NCBI GenBank assembly: GCA_027011385.1
Contig: JALVAD010000148.1
Location: 1-34,875, forward strand
DNA: 34,875 bases
Source of the DNA: Saprospiraceae bacterium
GTDB lineage: Bacteria > Bacteroidota > Bacteroidia > Chitinophagales > Saprospiraceae
Direction of reading: 5' to 3'
Made by a program: the position numbers and the translations under genes. This document shows, one piece after another, positions 3,157-31,610 of the stretch. A model generated the notes under the pieces. That model was given only the letters and a program-made list of their open reading frames with translations, ran no database searches and was not told the origin of the DNA. How positions within the stretch are numbered: the stretch's first letter is position 1; each line of letters opens with the position of its first letter.

Positions 3157-3203
3157 ATGTGTATCAGACCCCATCCCCTGTAGTGATTGCCTTTTAAACT
3201 TAT

Positions 3204-3273
3204 GCAACTCTTTATAAATCAATAAACCTACTTAGCGCCACTTAGCGGTATCCTTAGCGTCCTCAGCGGGAAA
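3204..3273 (+). repeat. 70-bp interspersed repeat, family H5, copy a (gcaactctttataaatcaataa ... atccttagcgtcctcagcgggaaa)
   Basis: The first 22 bp and last 24 bp are identical to the copy at 8823-8892 and the total length is the same. The centre is a degenerate run of TTAGCG-like units. Confidence 0.8.
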
Positions 3274-3287
3274 CCAGTTGCAGATTA

Positions 3288-3326
3288 GAACCCATCCCCG
3301 ACCCTTCCATTAGCAAGGGAAGGGGG
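3288..3326 (+). repeat. GC-rich hairpin module, family H3 (gaacccatcccc leader plus cccttcc/ggaaggg stem)
   Basis: gaacccatccccgacccttccattagcaagggaaggggg. The same leader and stem recur at 8631, at 11465 (split by the MITE) and inside both MITE copies. Confidence 0.75.
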
Positions 3327-3411
3327 AAGTTTGCTGCTTAATATATATTATTCCCCATGACTTAAAAAAAAATAAATTTATCGTAAATATCAAAATCCTG
3401 ATTGGTTTGAG

Positions 3412-3419
3412 TATATTTG
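3412..3419 (+). promoter_or_regulatory. Candidate Bacteroidota -7 promoter box TATATTTG (TAnnTTTG) upstream of xseB
   Basis: Exact match to the TAnnTTTG consensus, 17 nt upstream of the ATG at 3436. Confidence 0.4.
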
Positions 3420-3435
3420 TAAAAAAAATAAGCTG

Positions 3436-3624
3436 ATGGCTAAATCAATTACATATAAAGACGCTTTTGAGGAATTGAATAAAATTGCTCAAAGCCTTGA
3501 ACATGATGAACTGGAGATAGATTCTTTAGCAAAAAAAATCAAAAGAGCTAACGAATTGGTGACGATATGCAAAGAGAAATTAAGAGAGATTGAGCAAGAC
3601 GTTAATAATCAGCTTCAAAAATAA
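3436..3624 (+). CDS. xseB: Exodeoxyribonuclease VII small subunit
   Basis: 62 aa. YKDAFEELNKIAQSLEHDELEIDSLAKKIKRANELVTICKEKLREIE matches the XseB helical-hairpin pattern and size. Confidence 0.8.
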   Translation: MAKSITYKDAFEELNKIAQSLEHDELEIDSLAKKIKRANELVTICKEKLREIEQDVNNQLQK

Positions 3625-3628
3625 TTAT

Positions 3629-4597
3629 ATGAATAGCTTTGGTAGAAAATTCAGGGTTTCAATTTTTGGTGAATCTCATGGCAATTCAATAGGTATTACT
3701 ATTGACGGTTGTCCACCGGGAATAGATATTTCTGAGCATGATATGCTTGATGATTTGGAAAGGCGAAAAAGCGGAAAGCGTGGTACAACCCCAAGGAAAG
3801 AAAGTGATTTGCCCATTATAATATCAGGAGTATTCAATAATAAGACCACCGGCTCCCCTATTACTATAATATTTGAAAACAATAATACAAAATCAAAAGA
3901 TTACTCTTTTATAAAAGATACTCCTCGACCGGGACATGCAGATTTTGTAGCAGAAAAAAAATATAAAGGATATCAAGATTATAGAGGAGGAGGACATTTT
4001 AGCGGTAGATTGACACTTGGATTGGTAGTAGCAGGAGTTTTGGCAAAAAAAATAATCAATCCAATGAAACCGGTTGCCAATATTGTAGAAATTGGTGGGA
4101 GCACTGATTTTGACACTGCAATTAATAAAGCGATGAAGAAGAAAGATTCAATCGGGGGGATAATTGAATGCAGCGTCGTCAATATACCGATAGGTTTGGG
4201 AGAACCTTTCTTTGATTCCGTAGAATCCGTTATATCGCATTTGGCTTTCTCAGTCCCTGCCGTGAAAGGCATAGAATTCGGTCTTGGTTTTGAAAGTGCA
4301 AAAAGATACGGAAGTGAAGTCAATGATACATTTGTAGATAAAACAGGAAAAACTACGAGCAATAATAGTGGTGGAATAAACGGTGGCATCACAAATGGCA
4401 ATGATTTATTTTTTAAAGTTGCGATAAAGCCAACATCAAGCATTGGTTTAGGACAAGAAACATTTAATTTCAATACCGGCAAAAAAGAATTATTGCAAAT
4501 AGGCGGAAGACATGATACTTGCATCGCACTGAGAGTCCCTCCGGTAATTGAAGCTATCACGGCAATAGCACTAGCAGATTTACTATTGATTGATTAA
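3629..4597 (+). CDS. aroC: Chorismate synthase
   Basis: MNSFGRKFRVSIFGESHGNSIGITIDGCPPG, RPGHADF and GGGHFSGR are chorismate synthase signatures. The start is moved to the ATG at 3629, 4 nt after the xseB stop; the track start at 3590 overlaps xseB and adds non-conserved residues. Confidence 0.9.
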   Translation: MNSFGRKFRVSIFGESHGNSIGITIDGCPPGIDISEHDMLDDLERRKSGKRGTTPRKESDLPIIISGVFNNKTTGSPITIIFENNNTKSKDYSFIKDTPRPGHADFVAEKKYKGYQDYRGGGHFSGRLTLGLVVAGVLAKKIINPMKPVANIVEIGGSTDFDTAINKAMKKKDSIGGIIECSVVNIPIGLGEPFFDSVESVISHLAFSVPAVKGIEFGLGFESAKRYGSEVNDTFVDKTGKTTSNNSGGINGGITNGNDLFFKVAIKPTSSIGLGQETFNFNTGKKELLQIGGRHDTCIALRVPPVIEAITAIALADLLLID

Positions 4598-4645
4598 TCC
4601 TATAAATAGAGTATTTTATTTTTTAAAACATCTTTTAACCATGAT

Positions 4646-5002
4646 ATGAATATTGAAGAATTCCGAGAATTTTGCCTACAACTGAAGGGAGCACATGAGA
4701 GTTTTCCTTTCGATGAATCCACCTTGGTTTTTAAGGTAGGTAATAAAATGTTTGCCTTAATGGGCTTGGATAATATCGACTCACCTACGGCTAATATCAA
4801 AGGTGATCCTGAGAGAAACATTCAACTCAGAGAAGAATATGAAGGTATAAACCCCGGTTTTCATATGAACAAAAAGCACTGGAATACTATCACCTTAGAT
4901 TCTGATGTAAAAGACAGCTTAATCCGTGAACTTACCCGGGAATCTTATAATCTGGTCGTAAAAAGCTTAACAAAAAAAATAAGAACTGAATCGGGCTTGT
5001 AA
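4646..5002 (+). CDS. yjbR: MmcQ/YjbR-family protein
   Basis: 118 aa. FPFDESTLVFKVGNKMFALM and HMNKKHWNTI are typical of the YjbR fold family. Confidence 0.7.
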   Translation: MNIEEFREFCLQLKGAHESFPFDESTLVFKVGNKMFALMGLDNIDSPTANIKGDPERNIQLREEYEGINPGFHMNKKHWNTITLDSDVKDSLIRELTRESYNLVVKSLTKKIRTESGL

Positions 5003-5005
5003 ACT

Positions 5006-7468: not shown

Positions 7469-7513
7469 AAGTAGGTGTATTTCATTTTTTTACTACGGTT
7501 CGCCACACAGCTA

Positions 7514-7560
7514 CCCCCTCATCAATCCCACAAAATGATAGGGGGATGTAGCAACGCTGC
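7514..7560 (+). repeat. GC-rich hairpin module, family H4 (CCCCC stem ... GGGGG followed by a tgtagcaacgctgc tail)
   Basis: ccccctcatcaatcccacaaaatgatagggggatgtagcaacgctgc. The same flanks with a different stem sequence occur at 25730-25787 and, inverted, inside the MITE. Confidence 0.6.
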
Positions 7561-7625
7561 ATATCACATCAATAAAAAATAAACTACCAGAAAATGCTAA
7601 AAAACAAAAGGTAAAGACAACTTCA

Positions 7626-8537
7626 CTACCATAGTTTTGCAGGATATACTCCTTCCACGATCAAGCTTTTGATTCTTTCCATCACAAATGGTTTATCTTT
7701 TTGGTAAGTAACACCAAACCAATCGCTATCAGAACTAAGCACTTTAATTATCGCTTTGTCCTCATTTATTAACCAATCGATTAAATCAGGAATATAATAT
7801 TCTGAAGTTTTTTCATTTCCGTGTTTTTCAAGAAATTCTTTGAATCTGGCATCAAAATACTCAAAATAGCTTGGATAAAATCCCCACATATTCATTGAAA
7901 CAAGGGTTTCGTTATCCAATTCCGTTTTGCCATCAGCTTCAGGGTATCTAATGACTCCATCTGCTTCTCTAGCTATTTTTTTACATTCTTTTATCTTAAT
8001 CAGATTACCATTTTCATCAGCTTCACAAACTCCTCTATTAACATCACCATGATCGGACAATGTATTTTTAAGTTTATATCCCATTACAAAATACTCGTCT
8101 TTACCGTCTTTTTTACCATCAGGATTAGTTTTGAAATAATCAGCTGCTACGAAATAAGCATCTTTACCGTAATAATCATCAGCATTTATCACAAGAAAAG
8201 GCTCATTCACAACTTCAGCAGCCATATGCACAGCATGACCTGTACCCCAAGGTTTTTTGCGATCAAAAGGACCATAACCTTCAGGAATTTTATCCAATTC
8301 TTGAGTAACAAACTCGACATCGATTTTATCCTCAAATTTACCTTTGAAAAAATCTTTAAAAGAATCCAGAAATGATTCCCTGATAATAAATACTACCTTG
8401 CCAAAGCCGGCTTTTATAGCATCATATATCGAATAATCAAGGATTGTCTCACCATTAGGTCCAAAAGCATCCATTTGCTTTAATCCTCCATATCTGCTAC
8501 CCATTCCGGCAGCTAAAACAACTAAAGTAGGTTTCAT
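7626..8537 (-). CDS. Sugar-phosphate nucleotidyltransferase family protein
   Basis: The N-terminal VVLAAGMGSRYGGLKQ motif is the nucleotidyltransferase G-loop. 303 aa. Confidence 0.7.
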   Translation of the reverse strand: MKPTLVVLAAGMGSRYGGLKQMDAFGPNGETILDYSIYDAIKAGFGKVVFIIRESFLDSFKDFFKGKFEDKIDVEFVTQELDKIPEGYGPFDRKKPWGTGHAVHMAAEVVNEPFLVINADDYYGKDAYFVAADYFKTNPDGKKDGKDEYFVMGYKLKNTLSDHGDVNRGVCEADENGNLIKIKECKKIAREADGVIRYPEADGKTELDNETLVSMNMWGFYPSYFEYFDARFKEFLEKHGNEKTSEYYIPDLIDWLINEDKAIIKVLSSDSDWFGVTYQKDKPFVMERIKSLIVEGVYPAKLW

Positions 8538-8573
8538 AAAAGATTTCTTTATAATAAATAAAATAATGAGTGC

Positions 8574-8581
8574 AAAAGTAA
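8574..8581 (-). promoter_or_regulatory. Candidate -7 box TACTTTTG for the nucleotidyltransferase gene
   Basis: Plus-strand caaaagta is TACTTTTG on the minus strand, an exact TAnnTTTG match 37 nt upstream of the ATG at 8537. Confidence 0.4.
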
Positions 8582-8630
8582 CACTTATTTATTAAATAAA
8601 AAATCTAGTTCGCACAATTAATTAAATCAG

Positions 8631-8747
8631 AACCTATCCCCGACCTTTCTTTTTCAATAAGCGAGGTCAGAGACACTCGCTTATCAGTAGAATTACAGAA
8701 GAAATGCGGGTTGTGGTTTTCCCGATTTCGGAATGCAATGGAGAAAC
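8631..8747 (+). repeat. Mosaic of palindromic modules: H3 leader (8631-8649), H1 (8657-8686), H2 (8701-8747)
   Basis: H1 is ataagcgag gtcagagaca ctcgcttat (9-bp stem). H2 is gaaatgcgggttgtggttttcccgatttcggaatgcaatggagaaac. The same H1-H2 pair recurs at 11282-11374, and as H2-H1 at 25805-25893. Confidence 0.8.
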
Positions 8748-8822
8748 GGGGAGTTAGAGGGCAGTTGTGCCAGAAAAAAAAGATAATGAGGAGTATCGCC
8801 AAGGATTGAGTTAGATAAACAG

Positions 8823-8892
8823 GCAACTCTTTATAAATCAATAACATTCCTTAGTACTACGTAGTGGCATCCTTAGCGTCCTCAGCGGGAAA
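8823..8892 (+). repeat. 70-bp interspersed repeat, family H5, copy b
   Basis: gcaactctttataaatcaataa ... atccttagcgtcctcagcgggaaa. The ends are identical to 3204-3273 and the centre is diverged. Confidence 0.8.
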
Positions 8893-8946
8893 TTAAGCAG
8901 CTTATTTGGTTTAAAATACTGGAAATCTTAGAAAAAGCATGGTTTA

Positions 8947-10605
8947 TTATAGAGAAATAGACTTACTTACTCCCAATCTAAATTCACCACAAGATAACAA
9001 ATCCTTATTTGGTCCAAATTCACTAAATGTATAGTTGTATTGTGGTTCGATATAAATTGACAATCCATTTTTAAATTTCCTTTTGACACCAACACCTACA
9101 TTAGCTGACACAAATAATTTATCTTTGATTTTAGCTCCATCATGTACTCCTTTAGGATAATTCTTTTTACCATAAAGAGTATTGTGAAAATCGAAATCAT
9201 CTTTCAATTCCTCTGCATATTTTTTCAAAGTATGTGTCTTACCTTCGGCATCTGTCTTGGTTTCAACAAATTCATAATCCGCATTGTAAAGGGCATTAGC
9301 GGAAACACCGGCGACAGTATATAAATCCCATTTGGAGTTTTCCACAAAATGATATTTATGGACAAGAGGAATCTTTATTTGAAGATATTTTATTCCATCT
9401 AAATAAAATGAGGAGGATTCATTACCATGTACAATCTTTTTAGGAGAATATCTCAAGCTAGCGACATTGATTCCTGATTCAATCTCGTGTTTATTCTTTT
9501 TATAAGAGAGTGCTACACCTACACCAAAACCGGTTTTAGTCTGACTATAACCGGGAGTATTTAGCACTTTATCATTTGGCGTTTGTATTAGATTAATTGT
9601 TGGAGAAACATATGTCTTGGCAAAAAATCCATTAGAGACTTGTTTATTATTTTCTTTGTTTACCAAAGCTAACTCTTTAGCTCCCTCTCCGATATAATCC
9701 AGAGTAACAAATTGATTTGCTTCCCCACTATCTTTATTATCCTTTTTTGCTTTCCTCATGGCGATATTGTTATCTGGTGTAAAACTATTGGATACCACTT
9801 TTTCGCTATTTTGTATTTCTATAGAATTATTTCCAAGATATGATTGTGGTTCTATATTAATTGGAAATAATTGCTCTCCAAACTCAATAGTATAACCCTC
9901 AATAGTATACCCCATAGTAAAATTATTTGGAATCAAATCACTATAAGCTCTTTGAGACTGACTTAAAAGAGATTGATAATAAGGATTATCACCAATTAAT
10001 TTCATTCCATAATTTGGATTTAGTCTATTGGCATAAGTATTTGACACTATCACATCTCCAACATATTTAGATTTAGGCTTTATAGTAAGCTGTTTATTCT
10101 GATTTTGTTTGTGCACGATATTCATGCTTTGATTTATATCTTTAGTAGATATACCATCAATAACAGCTATAGAAACAATACTTGTGTTTTCTTTATAAAA
10201 ATCTGCTTCGGGTTGTGCCGCAACAATTTGTCCGGATTTACCCTTTATATTTACTGATTTTTTAGTCTTAGTTTCTACTATATCTTTAGAGGTATCATTT
10301 TCAATATAAAAATAGCCAAAAATCAGTAATAATACTGCTGCTGCAATACCTACAAACAATCTAAAACCACTAGCTCCTTTGGCTGTAGACCTATCAAGTT
10401 TTGTCTCAAATCTATCAAATGAATTAGTGACAAGAGGAACTGAAAAAGCCTTCAATTTATCTGCAATCACTTGATCAAAGATCACATCTTCTCCGTCATT
10501 TTCATTCAATTTCTTTTCCAGACGATTCCATGACTCCACCTCATAGGGGATTTTCATATCCCTAAGAATCTTTGCCATCTCTTTATCAAAATTATTATTG
10601 GTCAT
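8947..10605 (-). CDS. ECF-sigma-associated membrane protein (anti-sigma-like N-terminus, one TM helix, C-terminal beta-barrel-like domain)
   Basis: Its start overlaps the sigma gene stop by 11 nt. The cytoplasmic N-terminus of about 80 aa is followed by a TM segment FRLFVGIAAAVLLLIFGYFYI. The C-terminal 200 aa or so show alternating beta-strand patterns (GFGVGVALSY, VSANVGVGVKRKF, IYIEPQYNYTF) typical of OMP barrel domains. Confidence 0.6.
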   Translation of the reverse strand: MTNNNFDKEMAKILRDMKIPYEVESWNRLEKKLNENDGEDVIFDQVIADKLKAFSVPLVTNSFDRFETKLDRSTAKGASGFRLFVGIAAAVLLLIFGYFYIENDTSKDIVETKTKKSVNIKGKSGQIVAAQPEADFYKENTSIVSIAVIDGISTKDINQSMNIVHKQNQNKQLTIKPKSKYVGDVIVSNTYANRLNPNYGMKLIGDNPYYQSLLSQSQRAYSDLIPNNFTMGYTIEGYTIEFGEQLFPINIEPQSYLGNNSIEIQNSEKVVSNSFTPDNNIAMRKAKKDNKDSGEANQFVTLDYIGEGAKELALVNKENNKQVSNGFFAKTYVSPTINLIQTPNDKVLNTPGYSQTKTGFGVGVALSYKKNKHEIESGINVASLRYSPKKIVHGNESSSFYLDGIKYLQIKIPLVHKYHFVENSKWDLYTVAGVSANALYNADYEFVETKTDAEGKTHTLKKYAEELKDDFDFHNTLYGKKNYPKGVHDGAKIKDKLFVSANVGVGVKRKFKNGLSIYIEPQYNYTFSEFGPNKDLLSCGEFRLGVSKSISL

Positions 10606-11158
10606 AAAATTTATCTTTAGATAAAAGTAATTCTTTTAATTTTTTCCTAGCTTTAACCAAATTACTCCTTGAAGTACTTTCACTGATATTTAGTTTTTGA
10701 GCTATTTCTTTATGAGGGTATCCCTCTACGACAAACATATTAAAAATGGTTCTATAAATATAGGACAACTGATGCAATGCATTTAATATTTCCTCTACCG
10801 ATAAAGATTGGAGCGCACTAGCTTCTTTTGTTTTCAAATGGTAAACATTATCCAATTCAATAGTTTTCTTTTTAACCCTTTTTCTATAATGGTCAATTGA
10901 AGTATTTACAACGATTCTACTCATCCAACCTTTCAGAGATGTACCAGGTTTATATTTTCCAATATTTTTAAATATCTTAATAAAACTTTCGTGCAGAACA
11001 TCTTCTGCTTCCTCTTTTGTTCCCGCATACCTCAAACATATAGGCATAAGCACCTCGAAGTATTCTTCATACAGTTGTTTTTGAGCCCATCTTTTCTCCT
11101 TTAGGATACCTTCGATAAGTCCTTCTTCATTTCCCCATATTTTAAAAGAATAATCCAT
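10595..11158 (-). CDS. RNA polymerase ECF-type sigma-70 factor
   Basis: Region 2 (DVLHESFIKIF, GWMSRIVVNTSIDHYRK) and a region 4 HTH (GYPHKEIAQKLNISESTSRSNLVKARKKL). 187 aa. Confidence 0.9.
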   Translation of the reverse strand: MDYSFKIWGNEEGLIEGILKEKRWAQKQLYEEYFEVLMPICLRYAGTKEEAEDVLHESFIKIFKNIGKYKPGTSLKGWMSRIVVNTSIDHYRKRVKKKTIELDNVYHLKTKEASALQSLSVEEILNALHQLSYIYRTIFNMFVVEGYPHKEIAQKLNISESTSRSNLVKARKKLKELLLSKDKFYDQ

Positions 11159-11180
11159 GTTTTTTGTTTCTCTAATTCTT

Positions 11181-11188
11181 CAAACGTA
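11181..11188 (-). promoter_or_regulatory. Candidate -7 box TACGTTTG for the sigma operon
   Basis: Plus-strand caaacgta is TACGTTTG on the minus strand, 23 nt upstream of the ATG at 11158. Confidence 0.35.
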
Positions 11189-11281
11189 TATAAATATAAA
11201 ATGCTGCCTAAAATTACAATTATTTTCTGTTTTTTTTCAATTATCCTGTGTATCAGCACCGGAGTAGTACATTTTTGTAAG

Positions 11282-11374
11282 AAGCGAGGTCAGAGACACT
11301 CGCTTATCAAGCTAATTTTGAGGGAAATGCGGGTTATGGTTCTCTCTGTTTCGAAATCAGGGTTTTCGATTCCC
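11282..11374 (+). repeat. Mosaic of palindromic modules: H1 (11282-11309) and H2 (11324-11374)
   Basis: aagcgaggtcagagacactcgcttatca is identical to the 8659-8686 core. It is followed by gaaatgcgggttatggttctctctgtttcgaaat. Confidence 0.8.
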
Positions 11375-11496
11375 TTTACTACTACCATTTTGAACTCACA
11401 CTAATAAACCAAGAAAACAATTCCATCTGACAAAACCACTAAGTTTTTGATAATTTACATAAGAGAACCCATCCCCAAACCTTCCCTTTGTGAGGG

Positions 11497-11824
11497 CTTA
11501 CGTTATGACACATCTTTTAGCAAATATTTTTATTTAGAACCCACCTCAATCCTCCCTTACAAGGGAGGAAGCTGCAACCCCCTGTGAAATACTTCGTTGA
11601 TTTCACAGGGTAAACCGCAATAGCAACGCTTTTTTCACAAAAAAAATACCATTTAGTTATAAAACAAGATGATTCTCAAATAGCTATTTTTATTAATCAA
11701 GCACCTCCACTTCTCCCTTCCCTTTGTGAGGGAAGGGTTGGGGATGGGTGCTAAAACCGGAATCAAATCTCTCAAGAGAAAGCTATCGTTATCACACTTA
11801 TTAAAAGATGTGTCATAACGAAAG
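11497..11824 (+). mobile_element. MITE-like non-autonomous element, copy L (328 bp)
   Basis: Termini are cttacgttatgacacatctttta and taaaagatgtgtcataacgaaag; 22 of the 24 terminal positions are inverse-complementary. An identical 12-mer cctttgtgaggg abuts both ends (11485-11496 and 11825-11836). Removing the element restores an H3 hairpin. No credible ORF inside. The interior is about 97% identical, in inverted orientation, to 26023-26316. Confidence 0.75.
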
Positions 11825-12222
11825 CCTTTGTGAGGGAAGGGGCGTACCTGCTCTTAATCTGCAATATTTTCTCAGGCTTTTGCTTCTACGAGCCAAAGTT
11901 AGCTTTTTGGTTTTACTTTAACAAAGTCTCGAAGTACAGGCAAAGAAAAAATCAAATTTTTGTTAAAAATACAACTCTTTCTGTATTTCACCACAATGAT
12001 GAAAAAACGATGAAAAATTTTTTATTTTTTTTTCAATACCAATAAATGTATTTAATATTAGATTCCAAATCAAAACAGATTATATAAAAACATCATATCA
12101 CAACACATTAAAAATAAAGATAATATCAATATTTTTTTGGTATGTTTATTGAAAATATTGAAGTAATGAAAGAAGAATCATGGTGTATTGCCGTGATATA
12201 ATCTTATTATTAAAACAATAAT

Positions 12223-15200
12223 ATGAAATTAAATTTTAAGCTGATGAGAGAACCATTACAAGATGCTAAAAAGAGGTTATCCGGGGTTTACAAAAAACCT
12301 TTTATGACCGTTTTTGCCATTATTATTATGGCATTTAATTTGTCTGCCCAAGCTCCTAGCGGATCCGTGGTAGAAGATTGCACTTGCCTGAGCAATCAAA
12401 CACATTGTGGAGATGGACAGTATTCTACACTGCTGAGAATCGTGAACGGAGGACTTAACAATACTTGGTATGTCGCCGAAGATTCGATTCAAGGACTGTA
12501 TGATATCAATAGTCCTGCACCTCCGACACCACCGACTGAATTTGTAACCGGACCGGCAGGTGTAACAATGACAGATATGGGAGGCGAGACCTATGAGTTA
12601 ACTGCTATCCATGTTGATAGCCTCGGCTATTGGGTGAATTTAACTGACGGCACGGATACTGTCAAGCTGCTTGTTTCCCCTGGAACTTGCAAATACCCCC
12701 GGACTAAGATAGTCGGGGATCCTTTCGTTTGTGAAGGTCAAGTTTCTGACTATTCAACTGCTAATAATGCCACAAGCAATTATCTATGGACATTGAATAA
12801 TGATGGAACTCATGGTGGAACGATGACCTCTGCCAATACTGCCAATCCAATAACCATAGAATGGGATGATGATTCTGATGGCAAGTATCATCAAGTCAAA
12901 GTTCAAGAGACCGATGCAAATGGATGTGTAGTATCAGATTCAATGTTAGTTCAAATTGAGGATACCATAACCATGGCTTGTACACATGATGTACAAATAT
13001 CTTTGGATGCCAATTGTGCAGGAGCATTAACTGCTGACATGTTTCTAGAAGGTCAGGTCTATAATGATAGTTCTTATGCGATAATAATCCAAGATTCTAA
13101 TGGTAATCTTGTGAAGCAAGACACTTTAAGCAAAGATATGGTTAATAAGGTATACACAATTACCGTACAACATTTGTGCAGTGGCAATATGTGTTGGTCT
13201 TATATGCTTGTTCTTGACAAATCAGCACCGGATTTGAATTGTCATACAGATACAATAAAATGTTCAGATAGTGTAAAACCAGAAGATTTGGTTGATGGAT
13301 TCCCTCTATTGTACTATACTAATATACAAAAAACATCAAATCCTTTTAAATATATTGCAACAGGGACAAGCGGTTGTAGTGATGCGACTTTGGTATATAA
13401 TGATAAAGTTACTGAAGAGCCTTGTTCTTCTCCTTTCACTTCTACAATAATAAGAAAATGGAGAGTTAATGATGCTTCATTAAACTCAAGTGTTTGTATA
13501 GACACTATCAGAGTTGAAAGAACAGGATTGGCAGATATAAACTATCCTAAAAATTGGGATGGATTACCTTTTAACAATCCTTTCATTCAAGCTTGTAGCA
13601 AATATCCTACTGATGCAAATGGAAATCCTGATCCGAGCAAAACAGGTTCTCCCTCAGGTCCATTCTGTGGTAATCTGATGGTAAACTACTCAGATAAGAG
13701 GCTTTATTTATGTGACGATATTGGAGGCGAATCATATAAAGTCCTAAGAAATTGGACTGTAATGGATATGTGTACAGGAGATGCATTTGATACTCTTCAA
13801 ATCATTGCAATAATGGATACTCGTAAACCAACAATTTTAATACCCGGGCTTACAGGAGGCAATACATTTGTTGTAAACACTGAATATTATAACTGTGGTG
13901 CCAATGTCGAATTACCTGTAGCAACTGTTAGAGATTGTAGTATTGACAATCCACATGATTATACTGTTAGTTATCAACTAGCGGATGACGATGGGAATTA
14001 TCCTGACCCAACATTTCCATATACGACATTACATAAGGTAGGTGGAAAGTTTATATTACCAAATATTCCATATGGTTTTGCCAAAGTAAAATATACAGCT
14101 ACAGATCCTTGCGGCAATACAAAGGAAAGAATAATCTATGTAAAAGTGATAGATAACTTGCCTCCTCAAGCCGTTTGTGACAAGCATACAACTGTTACAT
14201 TAAGCGATTTGGGCATTGCATATTTAAGCAAATATTCATTTGATGACGGTTCATTTGACAATTGTTCTGATGTCACATTAGATGTAAGAAGAATGTCAGG
14301 AGTATGTGACCCATCCGATTTAATTTATGGTGAAGGGGTACATTTTTGTTGTATTGATTCAGGTCAAGACTCTGTTGGAGTAGAACTAAGAGTTACGGAT
14401 AGTAAGGGGTTTACAAATAGCTGTATGGCATGGGTTATAGTTAGTGATAATCAAAAACCGACAATTACTTGTCCTTCTAATGGTGAAGTAAGCTGTAAGT
14501 TTGATTACTCAGATTTATCAGTTTTCGGAACGATTAGAAATGACGAAAGTTTAGTTGAAAAAATATACATAAACGATCCTGAGCACGGTGGAAATCATCA
14601 TTACTTTGGCAAGGATGGATTTGCTACCGACAATTGTGATGTAACTGCCAAGATGATTTCAAAAACAGTATCAATCAATAATTGTGGAACTGGTGTTATA
14701 AGAAGAGTATTCCAAGCAACAGATAGTTATGGAAATAAATCAAATACTTGTACTCAGACTATTCAGGTAATAGATTTCAAGCCTTTTAATGCTAATAATC
14801 CGGCAGACTTAAGATGGCCTAATGATTATACATTCACCGGGTGTCTAGGAGAGAATATACTCCCTGACAATTTACCTGATGCTTATGGTTGGCCAAAAAT
14901 ACTGGGAGATGATAAATGCAGTACAATTGCAATGGACTATGACGACCTGATTTTTGAGCATGTAGAAGGAACTTGTTACAAGATAATAAGAACATGGAGA
15001 GTTGTAGATTGGTGCGTTTATGAACAAAACAAACCCGGAACACCATTGGGATATTGGGAACATGTACAAACTATAATGGTAACAGATGACACCAACCCAA
15101 CTGTGGAATCCGGATGTACTCCTGTTGACATTACTGCTTTGGGTAACTGTGATTATAGATACCACTTCAAAGCAATAGGTGATGATAACTGTACAGCCCC

Positions 15201-16971: not shown

Positions 16972-17055
16972 AACCGATTTATAAGGAGTGTTAATCTATT
17001 AAAGGGTTAATGCTCCTAAAATCCCAATCTATTAAAATAAATAAAATTATAAAAA

Positions 17056-20000
17056 ATGAAAAATTATTTACAAATTAAAAGCAAAGTGTTCAAATCTGCA
17101 CTTACTTTAATAGCATTCTTACTGTTTGCAATATCAATGCAAGCTCAGTGTGATGCAAAAATCACGGATGCTGATCATGACGGCAAAGATTATGTTTGTG
17201 CAGAATCAACTACATACTATCAAGCAGTACGATCAGCAGCTACCGGTAGTACCATTTCTTGGACTCTATGTGGTGGTGGAACAATACTATCTACTAATGA
17301 TGACAATATTCTTTCAAGTGTTTCCATTCAATGGGACAGCTTACCGGGAACTGGACCATACTGCATTAAAATGACAGAAACAAATGGGGCCTGCTCCAAT
17401 ACGGAAATACTAGATGTTTATATTGAACAAAACAATTTAGTAATGGCGTGTAATCGATTAGTTCTTGTAGCTTTGGACAATAACTGCAGGGACACAATAG
17501 GTGCAGATCAAATAATAGAAGCTCCATTGTATCCGGATGAAAGTTACGATGTCAATGTATTCAACACTGACAATTCGATAAGACCGGAACCGATAGTAAC
17601 ACTTCAAGATTTAGGAGATACCTTAATGGTTGTTGTTACACACGAATGCTCCGGCTTGTCCTGTATGGGTAGAATTGCATTCCAAGATAATCTTGCTACG
17701 ATGCTTTCATGTAGAGCAGATACAATCAAGCTGGAATGCGATGAATCAACTGACCCTGAGAATACACATGTTGGATTTCCGCTTGTAGCCGGTTCAACAG
17801 TCCATAAGGTTGACCAAAGAAGATATCAAGCTACCATTCCGGGAGATTGTGGTGGACAATTTACCTTGGTATTTTCAGATGAAGTACTAGACCAAACTTG
17901 TGGATTAAATGACTATCAATTTATAATACATAGGACATGGACTGCAATCGATGCATCAGGTAATGGTTGGTCCTGTACCGAAATTATTGCTCAAAAATGG
18001 GGTGATTTTGATACAATGACATTGCCTAATAATTATGATGGGATGAACGGAAATTTATTTTTTCAATGTAACGATAATCATCCAAATGCCAATGAATCTA
18101 TTTATTGGTCTTATAAAGATTCAATTCCTACACCTGCGATAACAGGCTATCCTCAATATGCTTCATGTAGTAATATACAGTTTTTATACGAAGATTTGAC
18201 TATTCCGGGTTGTGGATACAATAGAAAAGTACTCAGACATTGGACTATTTTAGACTGGTGTACAGGAAGACAAAAGCAATATGACCAAGTATTAGCATTT
18301 GTAGATGATACCCCTCCGATTATGGCATTGAGAACAGATACTCTTGAATTTGATGCAACCATAGGTAAGTGCTCCGGTAATGCATATCCATTACCTGATC
18401 CTTTAGTATTGGAAGATTGTTCCGATGTGACGGTTGAAGTTATAGGATACAAATTGTGTTCACAAGCTTTTGATAGTACAGATGGCATATACAAAAAATC
18501 AGGAAAATATGGAATCAAAGATTTACCGGTAGATTCCGTAATCTGTGTGAGATACAAAGCTACTGACGAATGTGGATTGTGGAGTGTTGCAAACATGAGA
18601 GTAGTAATTCGAGACAGACAAAAACCAACAGCTGCATGCGACGCTCATACAGTAGTGACAGTAGGTGTTAATGCAAAACTTTACGCAACTGCTCTTGACA
18701 ATCACAGCTGGGACAATTGTGGAATCAGCAAATTAGAGATTAAAAGGACATCCAATAAATGCGGTAATTATCAAGATTTGATATATGGTGAATCTGTAGA
18801 TATGTGTTGCGCTGATGTTGGTACGGATGTAGTAGTTAAATTAAAGGTTTATGATATTCATGGATTAACAAGTGAATGTACGGGAATAGTTCATGTTCAG
18901 GATAAAGAAAGACCTGTATTGACTTATTGCCCACCAAACTTCACCGTTGATTGTGAGCAAAATTACAGCAATTATTTCCCTGGAGGAAAACCAACAGCTA
19001 CCGATAATTGTACTATACTACCCCCTACTAAAACAGATAAAGCTAATCTAAATGATTGTGGTTTTGGAACTGTAAGAAGGACTTGGGTATTGAAAGATAA
19101 AGCAGGATTGGAGACCCTTCACAAATGTGTTCAAATCATTACAGTTGAAGACAAACATCCATTGACTGATTCTGATATCAATTGGCCTACAAACAAAACA
19201 CTTTATGGATGTTGGCCCGGAGTTGATTACAGTGAATCTGTGACAGGTATTCCAACAATAAATAATACAACTTGCAAGCAACTTGGCATTGCACATACAG
19301 ATAAAATAATACATAACCCTGCTACTTCAGATGCATGTGTAGTAATAGAAAGAACATTCACTGTAGGTGATTGGTGTAACACTAATGCTGCTTATATAAC
19401 ACATTTGCAATACATCTATATTCAAGATGGTGGTGCACCATATTTCACATATTGTAAGCATGATACGACGATATCAAGTGGAACTGCCTGTTCAGTAAAT
19501 ACCACAATAAGAGCAGAAGCAGAAGATGATTGTACTCCTGCTGATGATTTGGTATATACTTACAAAGTTGACTTGGACGATGACGGAACTATTGATTTCA
19601 CCGGAAACGGAAACGTAATAAACAGGACATTTGATAGCGGCAGGCATAAAATTGTATTTACTGTAACTGATGGTTGTGACAATACTGCGACTTGCACAAG
19701 ATACATAAGAATCAAAGACACCAAGCCCCCTACTCCATTGTGCTTAAGAAAAATCACAACAACACTTGGAATAGACGGAACTACTACAGTAGATGCTAAA
19801 ATATTTAACCACGGAAGTATCGATAATTGTACTCCTAGCAACTATGGAACATGCGGTTGTGGAACAGATTTAAGATTTTCTTTCTCTCAAAATGTGAATG
19901 ACAAAACCAGGACTTATACCTGTGATAGTTTGGACAATGGAGTTGGAAAGAAATTTGATTTGGATGTATGGGTAACTGACTTAGATGGAAACAAAGATTT

Positions 20001-21303
20001 TTGTAAAGTTATTCTCAATATTATGGATAGTCAAGATGTCTGTCCTGATGCTCCAAATCCTACAGTAGTAGTAAAAGGAACTATTGTAGATGCCAATTTG
20101 AATGGAATAGAAGGATTTAAGGTAAGTGGTATGACTTTGGATCAAGTGGTAGAAGATGCCGCTGAAACCAATGTAGATGGACAATACTATTTGGATGGTC
20201 TTGGAGCATACAAAAAGTATAAAGTTGCACCTAGCAAGACTGACAATGTCTTGGATGGAGTCACTACATTAGATATAGTATATATCCAAAAACACTTACT
20301 AGGTATAAACAAATTCGATGATCCATATAGTTATATAGCAGCAGATGCTAATGAATCCAAATCAGTCTCAGCAAGTGATATATTACAACTAAGAAAATTG
20401 ATTTTAGGAGTAACTACTGAATTACCGGGAAAGAAATCTTGGAAATTTATTCAGGCTAAAACTGAATTCAACAATCCTTCACATCCATGGGATTATGATG
20501 ACAAGTATATTACAGATAGCTTATTCTTTGAACAAGACAGTTTGGATTTCATTGCGGTAAAACTTGGAGACATAAATCACTCTGCTCAAGGATACAATTC
20601 AAGTTCTGTTCTAGAGAATAGATCCGAGGATAAATACTTTGAAACAGAAAATATATCTTTCAATAATTCCGATATTGTACCTGTTGTTTTCAAGGCAGAA
20701 GAAAGTGATTTAATCTCAGGATTCCAATTTACCTTGGAATACGACAGTAATAATTTAGAGTTTTTGAGTATTGAAGATGGAAAAATAGTATTGCAACAGA
20801 ATAATTACCATATTGTGAATAACAAAAATGGAATCATCACTTTCAGTTGGAATAGTTCAGACGCCTTAAATTTAGAGGAAATGAACAAATTATTTACGAT
20901 CAACTTCAAAGCTAAATCAGAAGGATTATTGAGTGATAATTTAAAAATATCATCAAAAATAACAAGTGCAGAGTTATATTCAGACAATTTGGAAGTTTCA
21001 AATCTAAATTTGAGATTTGATGGTAATAGTATTAAGAGCAATGAGATTGTCATTAATCAAAATATTCCAAATCCATTTTCAAATACAACAGAAGTTATAA
21101 TAAACTTACCTGAAGAAACCGATTTAGAATTTAGGATTTTGGATTCGACAGGAAGAATAATTAAGAGCACACACAGGCATTACTCAAAAGGACAAAACTC
21201 AATCTCAATTTTAAGTGCAGAACTTGGAAAACCAGGATTGTACTTCTATGAAATAACAACAGAAAAATCTTCAACCATCAAAAGAATGGTCTATATAAAA
21301 TAA
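17056..21303 (+). CDS. Giant T9SS-sorted surface protein (1415 aa), collinear paralog of the upstream gene
   Basis: Signal peptide ALTLIAFLLFAISMQAQ. Same module order as the upstream gene. IVFTVTDGCDNTATCTRYIRIKDTKPP (HYR-like). Dockerin-like GVTTLDIVYIQKHLLG and DANESKSVSASDILQLRKLILG (nt about 20251-20409). Cohesin-like block. CTD NQNIPNPFSNTTEVIINLP...YFYEITTEKSSTIKRMVYIK. Confidence 0.85.
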   Translation: MKNYLQIKSKVFKSALTLIAFLLFAISMQAQCDAKITDADHDGKDYVCAESTTYYQAVRSAATGSTISWTLCGGGTILSTNDDNILSSVSIQWDSLPGTGPYCIKMTETNGACSNTEILDVYIEQNNLVMACNRLVLVALDNNCRDTIGADQIIEAPLYPDESYDVNVFNTDNSIRPEPIVTLQDLGDTLMVVVTHECSGLSCMGRIAFQDNLATMLSCRADTIKLECDESTDPENTHVGFPLVAGSTVHKVDQRRYQATIPGDCGGQFTLVFSDEVLDQTCGLNDYQFIIHRTWTAIDASGNGWSCTEIIAQKWGDFDTMTLPNNYDGMNGNLFFQCNDNHPNANESIYWSYKDSIPTPAITGYPQYASCSNIQFLYEDLTIPGCGYNRKVLRHWTILDWCTGRQKQYDQVLAFVDDTPPIMALRTDTLEFDATIGKCSGNAYPLPDPLVLEDCSDVTVEVIGYKLCSQAFDSTDGIYKKSGKYGIKDLPVDSVICVRYKATDECGLWSVANMRVVIRDRQKPTAACDAHTVVTVGVNAKLYATALDNHSWDNCGISKLEIKRTSNKCGNYQDLIYGESVDMCCADVGTDVVVKLKVYDIHGLTSECTGIVHVQDKERPVLTYCPPNFTVDCEQNYSNYFPGGKPTATDNCTILPPTKTDKANLNDCGFGTVRRTWVLKDKAGLETLHKCVQIITVEDKHPLTDSDINWPTNKTLYGCWPGVDYSESVTGIPTINNTTCKQLGIAHTDKIIHNPATSDACVVIERTFTVGDWCNTNAAYITHLQYIYIQDGGAPYFTYCKHDTTISSGTACSVNTTIRAEAEDDCTPADDLVYTYKVDLDDDGTIDFTGNGNVINRTFDSGRHKIVFTVTDGCDNTATCTRYIRIKDTKPPTPLCLRKITTTLGIDGTTTVDAKIFNHGSIDNCTPSNYGTCGCGTDLRFSFSQNVNDKTRTYTCDSLDNGVGKKFDLDVWVTDLDGNKDFCKVILNIMDSQDVCPDAPNPTVVVKGTIVDANLNGIEGFKVSGMTLDQVVEDAAETNVDGQYYLDGLGAYKKYKVAPSKTDNVLDGVTTLDIVYIQKHLLGINKFDDPYSYIAADANESKSVSASDILQLRKLILGVTTELPGKKSWKFIQAKTEFNNPSHPWDYDDKYITDSLFFEQDSLDFIAVKLGDINHSAQGYNSSSVLENRSEDKYFETENISFNNSDIVPVVFKAEESDLISGFQFTLEYDSNNLEFLSIEDGKIVLQQNNYHIVNNKNGIITFSWNSSDALNLEEMNKLFTINFKAKSEGLLSDNLKISSKITSAELYSDNLEVSNLNLRFDGNSIKSNEIVINQNIPNPFSNTTEVIINLPEETDLEFRILDSTGRIIKSTHRHYSKGQNSISILSAELGKPGLYFYEITTEKSSTIKRMVYIK

Positions 21304-21330
21304 CAGCATCTTAATTTCATAGGTATTTAG

Positions 21331-21363
21331 AAGCCGGGTAATTCATTTATCCGGCTTTTTTTA
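21331..21363 (+). terminator. Rho-independent terminator after the second giant gene
   Basis: aagccgg (21331-21337) / ccggctt (21351-21357) stem with a 13-nt loop, followed by a T5+ run. Confidence 0.7.
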
Positions 21364-21387
21364 TTACCTTAGTTTTAAATTTGAAAT

Positions 21388-21708
21388 ATGGAAATAAAAA
21401 ATATTTATTTGCAAAAAAATAAAAATAGCAAATCGGAAATAATCGAAGATATTATTTTCACAAAATCGTTTAGACTCGAAAAGATCAGTTCTTTTGGATA
21501 TCCTACTCCTAATAATAAATGGTACAATCAAGACAAAAATGAATGGGTCTTACTATTAAAGGGGCAAGCGACACTGAAATTTAAAAAAGATGATTCTAGA
21601 ATTAATTTGACTGAAGGTGATTATATATTTTTAGAAAAACATTTAGAACACAGAGTTGAATATGTAAGCAAAGATGCTATTTGGTTATGCATTCATTATA
21701 AGAAATAA
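21388..21708 (+). CDS. Small cupin-domain protein
   Basis: 106 aa. EWVLLLKGQATLKF ... GDYIFLEKHLEHRVE fits the two-motif cupin barrel. Confidence 0.7.
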   Translation: MEIKNIYLQKNKNSKSEIIEDIIFTKSFRLEKISSFGYPTPNNKWYNQDKNEWVLLLKGQATLKFKKDDSRINLTEGDYIFLEKHLEHRVEYVSKDAIWLCIHYKK

Positions 21709-21723
21709 ATAAAACTATAAAAA

Positions 21724-24711: not shown

Positions 24712-24713
24712 TT

Positions 24714-25682
24714 ATGAAAGCAATCGTATTAAAGAAAGAGAATACTCCTCCTGTTTATGAGGATTTCAAATTGGATGATAAAAAAGACGAGGTGAAGGTT
24801 AAATTATTAGCTTCTGCTATTAATCACAGGGATCTTTGGATAATCAAAGGTATGTATGCCGGCATCAAATATCCAATTATTCTAGGGTCAGATGGTCTTG
24901 GTCTTTTTGAAGGTAAAAAAGTCATAATCAATCCCGGGCAAAATTGGGGTAACGATGAAAATGTACAATCTTCTAAATTCAAAATATTGGGCTTACCTGA
25001 TCATGGCACTTTTGCAGAATTTGTATATACACCTAAGCAATATCTCTTCCCTGCCCCTGAGCATTTAACAGACTTTGAATCCGCTGCATTACCTCTTGGA
25101 GGACTAACAGCGTATAGAGCTCTATTTTCAAAAGCAAAAATAAAAAAGAATGAGAAGGTATTAATCGCAGGAATAGGAGGTGGAGTCGCTTTATTCGCAA
25201 TGCAATTTGCACTTGCGGCAGGATTGGAGGTATATGTAAGTTCAAGCAGTGATAAAAAAATCAAAAAAGCTGTAGATTTGGGTGCAAATGGTGGAATCAA
25301 TTACACAAAGAAAGATTGGCACAGAGAACTTAAAGCGATTTCAGGTGGAATTGATATAATAATAGATAGCGCAGCCGGCTCAGGGTTTAGTACTTATTTG
25401 AAATTGATTAATCCGGGAGGAAGAATCGTAGTTTACGGTGGTACAAGAGGAAATATACAGGATTTAAGCCCGCAGATATTGTTCTGGAAACAGATATCTA
25501 TATTGGGCTCTACGATGGGTTCCGACCGGGATTTTAGTGATATGTTGCAATTTGTAAATAAACACAAAATCAAACCTGTATTGGATTCACTTTATAAGCT
25601 AGAGGATTTCAATATTGCTATTAAGAGAATGGAAGAAGGAAAACAATTTGGTAAAATAGTGCTTAAAAACGTGTATACTTAG
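24714..25682 (+). CDS. Medium-chain dehydrogenase/reductase (quinone oxidoreductase / Zn-ADH family)
   Basis: GroES-like N-terminal domain, Rossmann motif AGIGGGVALFAMQFA, C-terminal GKIVL. Starts 3 nt after the upstream stop. Confidence 0.8.
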   Translation: MKAIVLKKENTPPVYEDFKLDDKKDEVKVKLLASAINHRDLWIIKGMYAGIKYPIILGSDGLGLFEGKKVIINPGQNWGNDENVQSSKFKILGLPDHGTFAEFVYTPKQYLFPAPEHLTDFESAALPLGGLTAYRALFSKAKIKKNEKVLIAGIGGGVALFAMQFALAAGLEVYVSSSSDKKIKKAVDLGANGGINYTKKDWHRELKAISGGIDIIIDSAAGSGFSTYLKLINPGGRIVVYGGTRGNIQDLSPQILFWKQISILGSTMGSDRDFSDMLQFVNKHKIKPVLDSLYKLEDFNIAIKRMEEGKQFGKIVLKNVYT

Positions 25683-25729
25683 TGTCTGGCACAACAGCCC
25701 CCTCTGCCATAACGCAAAAACACCTCTCT

Positions 25730-25787
25730 CCCCCTTGTAGTTTTGCTCCACTACGTTACGTAAAACTACAGGGGGAAGCAGCAACCC
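25730..25787 (+). repeat. GC-rich hairpin module, family H4
   Basis: cccccttgtagtttt (25730-25744) pairs with aaaactacaggggg (25762-25775), followed by an aagcagcaac tail. Confidence 0.65.
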
Positions 25788-25804
25788 GCGACTTCTTGGA
25801 CTGA

Positions 25805-25893
25805 GAATTGTAGGTTGGGGTTCTCCCGGTTTCGGAATAAAATGGAGAAACAGAGCTTGATATAAAAGCGAAGTCAGAGATATTCGCTTATCA
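25805..25893 (+). repeat. Mosaic of palindromic modules: H2 (25805-25851) then H1 (25866-25893)
   Basis: gaattgtaggttggggttctcccggtttcggaataaaatggagaaac, then aagcgaagtcagagatattcgcttatca. The module order is reversed relative to the 8.6 kb and 11.3 kb loci but the strand is the same. Confidence 0.8.
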
Positions 25894-26022
25894 GGGATAC
25901 AAAAAAAGCTTCACATGGAGATTGTTATATTTCCGATTTTGAAAGATACTGAATATCGAACACTGAATAAGGATTGGAGATTTTAGAAGGTTTGCAATGA
26001 GATTAGGAAACCTTTTGCGGGG
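25866..26022 (+). repeat. About 125-bp direct repeat unit (H1 + gggatac + 90-bp AT-rich segment), copy 1, carrying a 32-bp internal insertion (25901-25932)
   Basis: 25933-26022 and 26613-26702 differ at 2 positions in my manual alignment (ccgattttgaaagatactgaatatcgaacactgaataaggattggagattttagaaggtttgcaatgagattagga...). Confidence 0.85.
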
Positions 26023-26503
26023 CTTACGTTATGACACATCTTTTAATAAGTGTAATAACGATAGCTTTCTCTTGAGAGATTTGATTCCGGTTTTAGCACC
26101 CATCCCCAGCTCTTCCCTCACAAAGGGAAGGGAGAAGTGGAGGTGCTTGATTAATAAAAATAGCTATTTGAGAATCATCTTGTTTTATAACTAAATGGTA
26201 TTTTTTTTTGAAAAAAGCGTTGCTATTGCGGTTTACCCTGTGAAATCAACGAAGTATTTCACTGGGGGTTGCAGCTTCCTCCCTTGTAAGGGAGGATTGA
26301 GGTGGGTTCTAAATAAAAAATCATGCAAATATTATTACACAAATATGGAGTTTTAACGTATTTCACTTTATTTGTACCAAATATCTAACTTGTGTAGTTG
26401 CTATATATGTACAAAAACAGACAACTTTTGACCAAAATATAAATATAGCTTCCGTTATGATAAATCTTATTTTTTTTTGCTTTAAGATGTGTCATAACGA
26501 AAG
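26023..26503 (-). mobile_element. MITE-like non-autonomous element, copy R (481 bp), inverted relative to copy L
   Basis: Same termini (cttacgttatgacacatctttt ... aagatgtgtcataacgaaag). An identical 11-mer cttttgcgggg abuts both ends (26012-26022 and 26504-26514). 26023-26316 is the reverse complement of 11532-11824, with about 7-8 differences by eye. It carries about 155 bp more AT-rich sequence (about 26317-26475) than copy L. Confidence 0.75.
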
Positions 26504-26514
26504 CTTTTGCGGGG

Positions 26515-26737
26515 ATAGAGAGACATTCGCTTATCAGGAGAGTGTAAACGAAATCATAGACCTTTTGCAGGGAGATAAAGCGAAGTCAGCGATATTCGCT
26601 TATCAGGGATACCCGATTTTGAAAGATACTGAATATCGAACACTGAATAAGGATTGGAGATTTTAGAAGGTTTGCAATGAGATTAGGAGACCTTTTGCAG
26701 GGAGAAGGAAAGCGAAGTCAGAGACATTCGCTTATCA
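26515..26737 (+). repeat. Three further H1 palindromic units (26515-26536 5'-truncated, 26578-26605, 26710-26737), including copy 2 of the 125-bp unit (26578-26702)
   Basis: The core aagcgaagtcag[a/c]ga[c/t]attcgcttatca is repeated. Each unit is preceded by accttttgcaggga. Confidence 0.85.
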
Positions 26738-26845
26738 AGGACAAAGAATCGAAGATTTTAATTTTATCTACTAATAGTGTTTAAAAAAAACTTTATTGAA
26801 ACTAATACGTTAAAATCTTACACCACATAATAAATATATCACTAA

Positions 26846-31597: not shown

Positions 31598-31610
31598 TAT
31601 AGTATTCTTT

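Follow-up and report, generated by a model that had tools for sequence, protein, structure and literature searches.

GC-rich intergenic repeats of a Saprospiraceae contig stem mostly from small non-coding transposons of a few families, now broken or nested, and include a 28-base hairpin repeat

What are the GC-rich repeat modules that fill five intergenic regions of an AT-rich stretch of Saprospiraceae DNA, and how did they come to be arranged in mosaics? The stretch analyzed here, referred to as the window, comprises 34,875 nucleotides of contig JALVAD010000148.1 (assembly GCA_027011385.1) and has a GC content of 33.9%, against 38-52% in the repeat clusters, which we denote A to E (about 3170-3330, 7514-7560, 8631-8892, 11282-11842 and 25690-26737). 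The original prediction, made from the sequence alone, described at least five families of palindromic modules, H1 to H5, shuffled into mosaics that resemble the bacterial interspersed mosaic elements (BIMEs) composed of repetitive extragenic palindromic (REP) sequences. We find that most of these repeats are copies, either broken or nested, of a handful of short non-coding transposons, accompanied by one 28-base hairpin repeat. [quoted passage not shown] The five clusters are probably patchworks of lineage-specific, non-coding selfish DNA, made up of two families of MITEs and of some small hairpin repeats.

The modules were recovered by repeat finding and direct reading of the sequence, with a motif scan for the H3 core, and all the named modules were found in place, each in intergenic DNA; shuffled-sequence controls contained no module motif (0-0.3 expected). 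The predicted intergenic mosaics of recurrent GC-rich modules are thus borne out, including three copies of H2 (8700, 11323 and 25804), two of H4 (7514-7556 and 25730-25786), two of H5 (3185-3273 and 8804-8892; 79% identical over 89 nt), and the module order, H1-H2 at 8.6 and 11.3 kb and H2-H1 at 25.8 kb. Of the six copies claimed for H1 (AAGCGARGTCAGMGAYAYTCGCTTATCA), five are complete (8659, 11282, 25866, 26578 and 26710) and the sixth is a 3' half at 26519, whereas the H3 core (GAACCCATCCCC) occurs free at four sites rather than three (3167, 3288, 8630 and 11465), in addition to the copies correctly placed inside the MITEs (11740 on the minus strand and 26096). The label 'palindromic' fits H1 (folding z = -5.2) and H4 (z = -3.0 and -4.3) but not the other modules: the folds of H2 (z about -1) and H3 (z about -0.8) are no more stable than those of shuffled sequence, H5 (z = +0.4) consists of CTTAGCG heptamers repeated directly in a row, and D6, a 90-nt unit, is non-palindromic.

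Four motifs, namely H1, H2, H4 and the additional H6, belong colinearly to a single MITE family, MITE-A. Alignment of the H1 flanks revealed a recurrent composite bounded by an outer inverted repeat; the terminal inverted repeat (TIR), AGGTGCATTTCATTTTTTCGCG, is present at both ends, and 8-9 bp AT-rich target duplications lie in the flanks. A search for AGGTGCATTTCATTTTTTCGCG identified 52 MITE-A ends in the DNA fetched for comparison, the loci of which carry L numbers here. The mini form, 90 bp long, consists of the two ends and one CTCCTTTAGGAG hairpin and is found at L048 8183-8272, L050 4548-4637, L069 2146-2236, L077 602-691 and L095 5846-5935; perfect 8-9 bp direct repeats flank the first three of these and the MITE-A copy in L072, the flanking repeats in L077 and L095 being merely approximate. 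The short form (294 bp, in L071) has the architecture TIR-H6-H4-H2-H6rc-TIR, and the long form (372-376 bp) is the short form plus HPx, HP0 and H1. Full TIR-bearing copies are present at L070 1604-1975 and in L045, L068, L071 and L072, and comparison of L070 with its 94.6%-identical ortholog L050 shows a 566-bp insertion with the full MITE-A in L070 only. Because a 351-bp variant (L058 9839-10189) carries the same ends around wholly different hairpin modules, the MITE-A scaffold seems to accumulate hairpin cargo. Recurrent short open reading frames (ORFs) are seen in MITE-A, but a small protein is ruled out by the 1-2 nt indels by which the copies differ from each other.

Searched with nhmmer, a hidden Markov model (HMM) of the long form matched nine segments of the window, all on the plus strand and each over a sub-range of the model only:

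Window 7473-7535, HMM positions 1-79.
Window 8650-8786, HMM positions 228-362.
Window 11243-11358, HMM positions 198-314.
Window 25686-25778, HMM positions 46-138.
Window 25801-25855, HMM positions 276-329.
Window 25865-25941, HMM positions 235-309.
Window 26519-26543, HMM positions 247-271, H1 only.
Window 26563-26608, HMM positions 228-267, H1 only.
Window 26693-26740, HMM positions 228-267, H1 only.

Therefore, truncated MITE-A copies make up cluster B and the matching stretches of clusters C, D and E, and the 'H2-H1' order in cluster E arises because a short form (H6-H4-H2) is followed by a separate H1.

The second family, MITE-B, has two copies in the window, one at 11496-11825 and the other at 26022-26504, which is inverted and longer by about 160 bases. 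Its ends are 24-nt inverted repeats (GCTTWCGTTATGACACATCTTTTA), and the target duplications are exact at both window copies, 10 bp (CTTTGTGAGG) and 9 bp (TTTTGCGGG), respectively. Copy 1 lies within the loop of an H3 hairpin, with the loop duplicated and the H3 unit split, and the site of copy 2 is a similar C-TTTTGCGGG-G sequence. The interior of MITE-B is composed of H3- and H4-type hairpins, which explains why these modules seem to occur 'free' as well as within the MITE. The sampled DNA contains 11 MITE-B ends; the other copies are in L055, L070, L086 and L087, three of the four adjoining either sequence of this kind or an H1, and the 90%-identical ortholog of L055, L080, is without the element. 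Structurally, MITE-A and MITE-B have everything that is expected of elements transposed by a transposase supplied in trans, and H3, H5 and D6 are additional small repeat units. A third MITE, of approximately 170 bp, was observed in a sister species (L084 4223-4394) at the site corresponding to window position 21705, where the window is without it; it has TAGTGTCTGATCGAAAACA ends and a long internal palindrome, and a related copy is present in L079.

The end sequences of the elements are AGGTGCATTTCATTTTTTCGCG and GCTTACGTTATGACACATC. The inner repeat H6rc, which reads GGCAGTGTTGCAAA in most MITE-A copies (H6 sites in the window, 8755-8775 and 25687-25704), is one base from the terminal repeat of the insertion sequence (IS) IS26 (GGCACTGTTGCAAA); it points outward instead of inward, and the resemblance is probably due to chance.

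The resulting feature map of the window is as follows:

3167..3178, plus strand: H3 5' core fragment (GACCCCATCCCC; motif scan, sequence).
3185..3273, plus strand: H5 copy 1, direct CTTAGCG heptamers with the end ATCCTTAGCGTCCTCAGCGGGAAA, no hairpin (repeat family D9; fold z = +0.4).
3287..3342, plus strand: complete H3 unit, with GAACCCATCCCC, the CCCTTCC/GGAAGGG hairpin and the GCTGCTTAAT tail (repeats, sequence, motif scan).
7473..7565, plus strand: MITE-A 5' fragment, with the outer TIR AGGTGTATTTCATTTTTTT (match at 7473), a motif resembling H6 and, at 7514-7556, the H4 hairpin (nhmmer HMM 1-79, E = 1.2e-4; hairpin z = -3.0).
8628..8650, plus strand: H3 5' fragment (GAACCTATCCCCGACCTTTC; repeats, motif scan).
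8650..8786, plus strand: 3' part of a long-form MITE-A, with H1 8659-8686, H2 8700-8747 and the inner inverted repeat H6rc 8755-8775 (nhmmer HMM 228-362, E = 2e-30).
8804..8892, plus strand: H5 copy 2 (repeat family D9).
8893..8901, minus strand: remnant TTAAGCAGC, which is the H3 tail in reverse complement (sequence reading).
11243..11358, plus strand: middle of a long-form MITE-A, with the HP0 hairpin 11245-11262, H1 11282-11309 and H2 11323-11358 (nhmmer HMM 198-314, E = 2e-29; alignment).
11463..11495, plus strand: left half of the H3 unit split by MITE-B, including target duplication copy 1, CTTTGTGAGG, at 11486-11495 (sequence).
11496..11825, plus strand: MITE-B copy 1, 330 bp, with GCTTACGTTATGACACATCTTTTA and the inverse of it as ends, H3- and H4-type hairpins inside (repeats; internal hairpins z = -5.2).
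11826..11860, plus strand: right half of the split H3 unit, including target duplication copy 2, CTTTGTGAGG, at 11826-11835 (sequence).
25686..25855, plus strand: short-form MITE-A without outer TIRs, with H6 25687-25704, H4 25730-25786 and H2 25801-25855 (HMM 46-138 and 276-329; same architecture as the 294-bp form of L071).
25866..25893, plus strand: H1a, also in the sister species (repeats, comparison).
25898..26708, plus strand: 811 bp missing from the sister species, containing D6a, MITE-B copy 2, the half H1, H1b and D6b (L014 joins window 25897 to 26709).
25933..26021, plus strand: D6 copy a, about 90 nt, GAATATCGAA...GATTTTAGAAG...CCTTTTGCGGG, its end interrupted by MITE-B (repeat family D6).
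26022..26504, minus strand: MITE-B copy 2, 483 bp, with about 160 bp of extra interior, inverted relative to copy 1 (repeats, sequence).
26013-26021 and 26505-26513: 9-bp duplication TTTTGCGGG around MITE-B copy 2 (sequence).
26519..26543, plus strand: H1 3' half, partial (repeat family D11; HMM search).
26578..26605, plus strand: H1b (repeats).
26613..26702, plus strand: D6 copy b, 98% identical to copy a (repeat family D6).
26710..26737, plus strand: H1c (repeats).

Given that the window comes from a metagenome assembly, in which repeats are the classic points of breakage and joining, the mosaics could in principle be artefacts, chimeric joins or collapsed repeats. This is highly improbable: an independent ENA assembly of the same species (L034) is 99.1% identical over 4 kb (window 7876-11889), that is, across clusters C and D including MITE-B; the contig of a sister species (L014/L084, 87-89% nucleotide identity) is colinear through the left part of cluster E and the flanking genes; and the modules are present in 90+ contigs from separate samples. 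The sister species retains H6-H4-H2-H1 of cluster E and is without the 811 bp at 25898-26708, between H1a and H1c. In three relatives that are further removed, with a neighbouring NTP-transferase of 76-79% protein identity, the gene order is kept and the spacers are short, AT-rich and module-free, spacer C being 272, 225 and 62 bp long compared with 409 bp in the window, and spacer D 430, 761 and 348 bp compared with 1064 bp. The modules are lineage-specific and turning over, such that even sister species differ in the copies present. The short contig L041 (91% protein identity) is too short and too little syntenic to provide empty sites for clusters B and C.

The spacer of cluster B (7469-7625) is a synteny breakpoint, with the MITE-A fragment exactly at the junction. 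After the NTP-transferase gene come scpA and the polyphosphate kinase gene in three relatives, whereas a glycosyltransferase gene faces it in the window and yet another gene in L041.

How far do the repeats extend beyond the window? A genome-wide count had been proposed with the original prediction; our exact-pattern scan for H1 covered 185,579 species genomes and 241 million metagenome records, and the modules proved to be dispersed well outside the window, with 33 loci in species genomes, all in only three Saprospiraceae species represented by metagenome-assembled genomes (MAGs) from one sample, and 63 loci in metagenome records, all from only two JGI samples, Ga0256831 and Ga0256832. Each incomplete MAG contains about 13-22 H1 copies. 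All 41 H1 copies in the 33-locus MAG set are intergenic, and repeats cover 32% of the non-coding but only 1.5% of the coding bases. Thus, confinement of the modules to this window, which would have spoken against dispersed elements, was not observed at these 33 + 63 loci, and the repeat families are confined to a very narrow group of uncultured Saprospiraceae. The other possibility raised at the outset, that the modules are fragments of one known element, turned out to be about half right, the element being a new MITE and not a known IS. As anticipated, the sequences appear unrelated to known elements: no Rfam family matched, blastn searches against plasmids and phages returned no match, neither H1 nor the end of MITE-B was found in scans of viral contigs, and we found no papers on these repeats in Saprospiraceae in the literature. 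Covariance models of Rfam (E <= 1), run on the window and on four loci rich in repeats, detected nothing relevant.

H1 is not just a piece of a MITE but also a free-standing repeat. About 70% of its copies are outside MITE-A and roughly 30% inside, and in 561 kb of metagenome loci the MITE-A model matched 80 times at H1 positions compared with 15-27 times elsewhere. The unit is 28 nt long with a GG tail and a 7-bp stem (DNA fold -7.7 kcal/mol, z = -5.2). Among 73 distinct copies, the limits of conservation are sharp at the 28-mer plus GG, with unrelated flanks; the copies start with AAGC and end with TATCA(GG), and stem pair 7-18 is G-C in 44, A-T in 25, G-T in 3 and A-C in 1. H1 is nearly invariant, given that 57 copies match the consensus exactly and 17 with one mismatch (74 of 91).

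These properties raise the possibility of a true REP/BIME system, in which H1, and perhaps H3 and H4, would be copied by a REP-associated tyrosine transposase (RAYT; HUH/Y1 type), the gene of which typically has REPs on its flanks, acting on single-stranded hairpins, and the mosaics would be BIME-like clusters. Compatible with such a system are the imperfect 28-nt palindrome, within the 20-40 nt typical of REPs, with its stable fold, the sharp ends, the absence of a target duplication (flanking direct repeats are no commoner than in re-paired controls), the extragenic location with a preference for 3' ends, the occurrence of head-to-tail H1-only arrays and of 3'-half duplications, and the single strand used by all H1 copies on each of the 17 multi-copy contigs (5/5 copies in the window). 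Moreover, some Bacteroidetes are reported to have CGTC-type REPs (PMC3733652). However, REPs are recognised by a conserved tetranucleotide, GTAG or CGTC, that bounds the palindrome on one side (PMC3733652), and neither tag is present at the foot of the H1 stem, on either strand, in any of the 73 copies. H1 never forms inverted pairs or alternates in orientation; a heuristic search of about 0.9 Mb of related loci found no ORF with an HUH...Y motif, and no neighbour gene recurs; the copy number is apparently in the tens per MAG rather than the hundreds; and the orientation asymmetry, which involves upstream genes only, points to the ends of transcription units, not to the replication strand. We therefore consider a RAYT-driven origin quite unlikely. 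The original comparison with BIMEs and REPs holds loosely as a description and fails as an account of independently shuffled REP-like units, since H1, H2, H4 and H6 are colinear in one MITE; the tagless H1, free of inverted pairing and found in sampled DNA without a RAYT, does not qualify as a REP/BIME, and the analogy is descriptive, not mechanistic.

The gene context of H1 points to the ends of transcription units. H1-containing spacers are convergent in 22 cases and divergent in 5, and in co-directional spacers H1 is in sense 21 times and antisense 5 times. Co-orientation with the four nearest upstream genes is 42:10, 25:10, 23:4 and 17:5, in order, and that with downstream genes is about 50:50, so that H1 marks the 3' end of co-oriented gene runs, in sense. 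An RNA-level function is conceivable, with H1 acting at operon ends as a 3'-end hairpin, that is, a transcript stabiliser, a processing site or an unconventional terminator, which the MITEs merely distribute. Apart from the strong sense bias and the position after co-oriented gene runs, this would fit the nearly invariant loop and tail in three or more species with a covarying stem pair, as well as the identity of the orthologous H1 in the sister species even though the flanks are 88% identical. Yet no module has a T-run or canonical terminator, no Rfam family matched, and the covariation involves one pair with two states and might reflect a single historical event. Furthermore, H1 is missing from the orthologous spacers of slightly more distant relatives and is accordingly dispensable for those genes, 10 of 52 copies are opposite to the upstream gene and five lie in divergent spacers, and the orientation bias is equally well explained by selection against harmful insertions. 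An RNA function as the primary explanation of the repeats is, on balance, rather unlikely.

The only strong terminator-like site in the window, a hairpin followed by a T-run at 21329-21359, is located after a 1415-aa gene and is kept in the sister species; the match of the Rfam L20_leader model to it is weak and spurious (27.5 bits compared with the gathering score of 58.7). Several other interpretations of H1 were considered. A replication-strand bias of the IS200/IS605 kind, suggested by the use of one strand per contig, is weakened by the co-orientation of H1 with upstream genes only; a dif/Xer-like 11-6-11 site is ruled out by a symmetry centre that is off the centre of the 28-mer; and a cis-regulatory leader of one gene family is ruled out by the flanking genes, which are unrelated housekeeping genes.

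A further, speculative reading would make H1 a self-contained 28-nt REP-like hairpin of a new kind instead of a MITE relic: tagless, RAYT-less, duplication-free and locally one-stranded, held in sense at operon 3' ends by selection, it might represent a Bacteroidota-specific transcript-end or protein-binding hairpin that spreads by an unknown mechanism and hitch-hikes on MITEs. We put this forward as a tentative idea that is unlikely to be correct.

Returning to the reading of the clusters as patchworks of selfish DNA, a mobilising enzyme would be expected. As predicted, the Pfam scan of window ORFs found no transposase domain, the left-edge ORF (1-1935, minus strand) being outside the scan, and clustering of recurrent ORFs yielded no transposase either. 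Such absence is weak evidence because MAGs routinely lose IS copies. Several observations nevertheless weigh against this reading. There is no complete MITE-A in the window, only relics. No transposase recurs among the 135 ORFs neighbouring H1, which are housekeeping genes, and the fetched loci contain no pair of TIRs 0.9-4.5 kb apart that would denote an autonomous IS; because no transposase was found in the window or in about 0.9 Mb of related DNA, we infer, rather than observe, mobilisation of the MITEs in trans. The preference of MITE-B for the loop of CCCTTCCC-type hairpins is seen at 4 of 6 sites, with both ends visible only in the two window copies. The sampled loci were picked by H1 presence, so the counts are biased. 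Finally, the near-invariance of H1 and its sense bias at 3' ends could mean function, not selfish spread.

The course of events that would account for the patchworks might be the following. DDE-type transposases encoded elsewhere in the genome would move the MITEs in trans, and the copies would persist chiefly downstream of transcription units, where they presumably do the least harm. Existing repeats and hairpin loops would serve as preferred or tolerated landing sites, giving rise to nesting. Recombination or slippage between H1 copies could duplicate or delete DNA locally, which would account for the 811 bp by which the sister species differs and for the duplication within cluster E.

The two families resemble the known bacterial MITEs, such as Correia/NEMIS of Neisseria, the MITE of Porphyromonas gingivalis (PMC4596501) and the cyanobacterial Nezha, in the presence of TIRs and target-site duplications. 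As in those elements, MITE-A and MITE-B are 90-483 bp long, non-coding and present in many intergenic copies, and their presence is polymorphic between close relatives (L070/L050 and L055/L080; likewise L084/window for the third MITE). Unlike them, MITE-A and MITE-B have no sequence match in the Rfam, plasmid, phage and viral collections, their parent IS was not found in the sampled DNA, and the MITE-A ends enclose widely varied hairpin cargo (mini, short, long and the L058 variant). With enterobacterial REPs and BIMEs and the RAYT-dependent REPINs of Pseudomonas, H1 shares the short, GC-rich, imperfectly palindromic and extragenic character, the location at the 3' ends of transcription units, the clustering with other motifs and the lack of a target duplication; it differs in being tagless, in having direct copies that number tens instead of hundreds, in the lack of a RAYT in the sampled DNA, and in that about 30% of its copies are inside a TIR-bounded MITE. 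The pneumococcal BOX elements have a fixed boxA-boxB(n)-boxC order without a TIR and target-duplication scaffold. They are likewise modular intergenic composites with variable module content, whereas the module order in the window follows the MITE-A backbone, with truncation, nesting and separate free H1 copies. Insertion sequences that target REPs, for example IS1397 and ISKpn1, are known (survey PMC1525189); similarly, MITE-B copy 1 occupies the loop of H3, which is a repeated hairpin, and three further copies adjoin similar sequence, but MITE-B is non-autonomous and its preference is derived from few sites.

The remainder of the window encodes an ordinary set of Bacteroidota genes, including giant surface proteins sorted by the type IX secretion system (T9SS), an ECF sigma factor, chorismate synthase, CoaE, two DEAD-box helicases and a Wzz-type tyrosine kinase; a tRNA scan of the window found no tRNA genes. 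Two tandem paralog pairs are present: the genes at 12223-16971 and 17056-21303, which encode giant T9SS-sorted proteins carrying both dockerin and cohesin domains and have a 147-nt segment in common (71% identity, at 15888 and 20214), and those of the two DEAD-box helicases at 26846-27994 and 28004-29353. An 84-bp tandem unit (2.3 copies, 98-100% identity, 2195-2383) lies between the left-edge gene (1-1935, minus strand) and the gene of an AsnC-family regulator (2527-3090). Long heptamer arrays at 31598-31890 and 32305-32462, with the plus-strand units TTGAACC, TTGAACA and TGAAACA (NGTTCAA and TGTTTCA when read on the minus strand, which is the coding one), occupy the spacers immediately 5' of the start codons of the minus-strand genes 31343-31597 and 31888-32304, and their copy numbers in the window and in the sister species (L014) are unequal. 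Heptamer direct repeats 5' of start codons are known in Beggiatoaceae, cyanobacteria and a few Bacteroidetes (PMC4679880); the arrays in the window are alike in placement and differ in the heptamer itself.

To conclude, the elements identified here add a new case to a well-known type of selfish DNA and make up a dense, clade-restricted repeat system of at least three MITE families and small hairpin units in uncultured Saprospiraceae. Seeming shuffling of modules can arise by truncation and nesting of a few MITEs, which calls for caution in the annotation of repeats in MAGs. The elements, which are not the same in sister species, are possible strain markers and explain differences in spacer length as well as assembly breaks. 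H1 is of wider interest, being nearly invariant, in sense at operon ends and without known REP hallmarks; if functional, it would bear on the 3' ends of transcripts in Bacteroidota.

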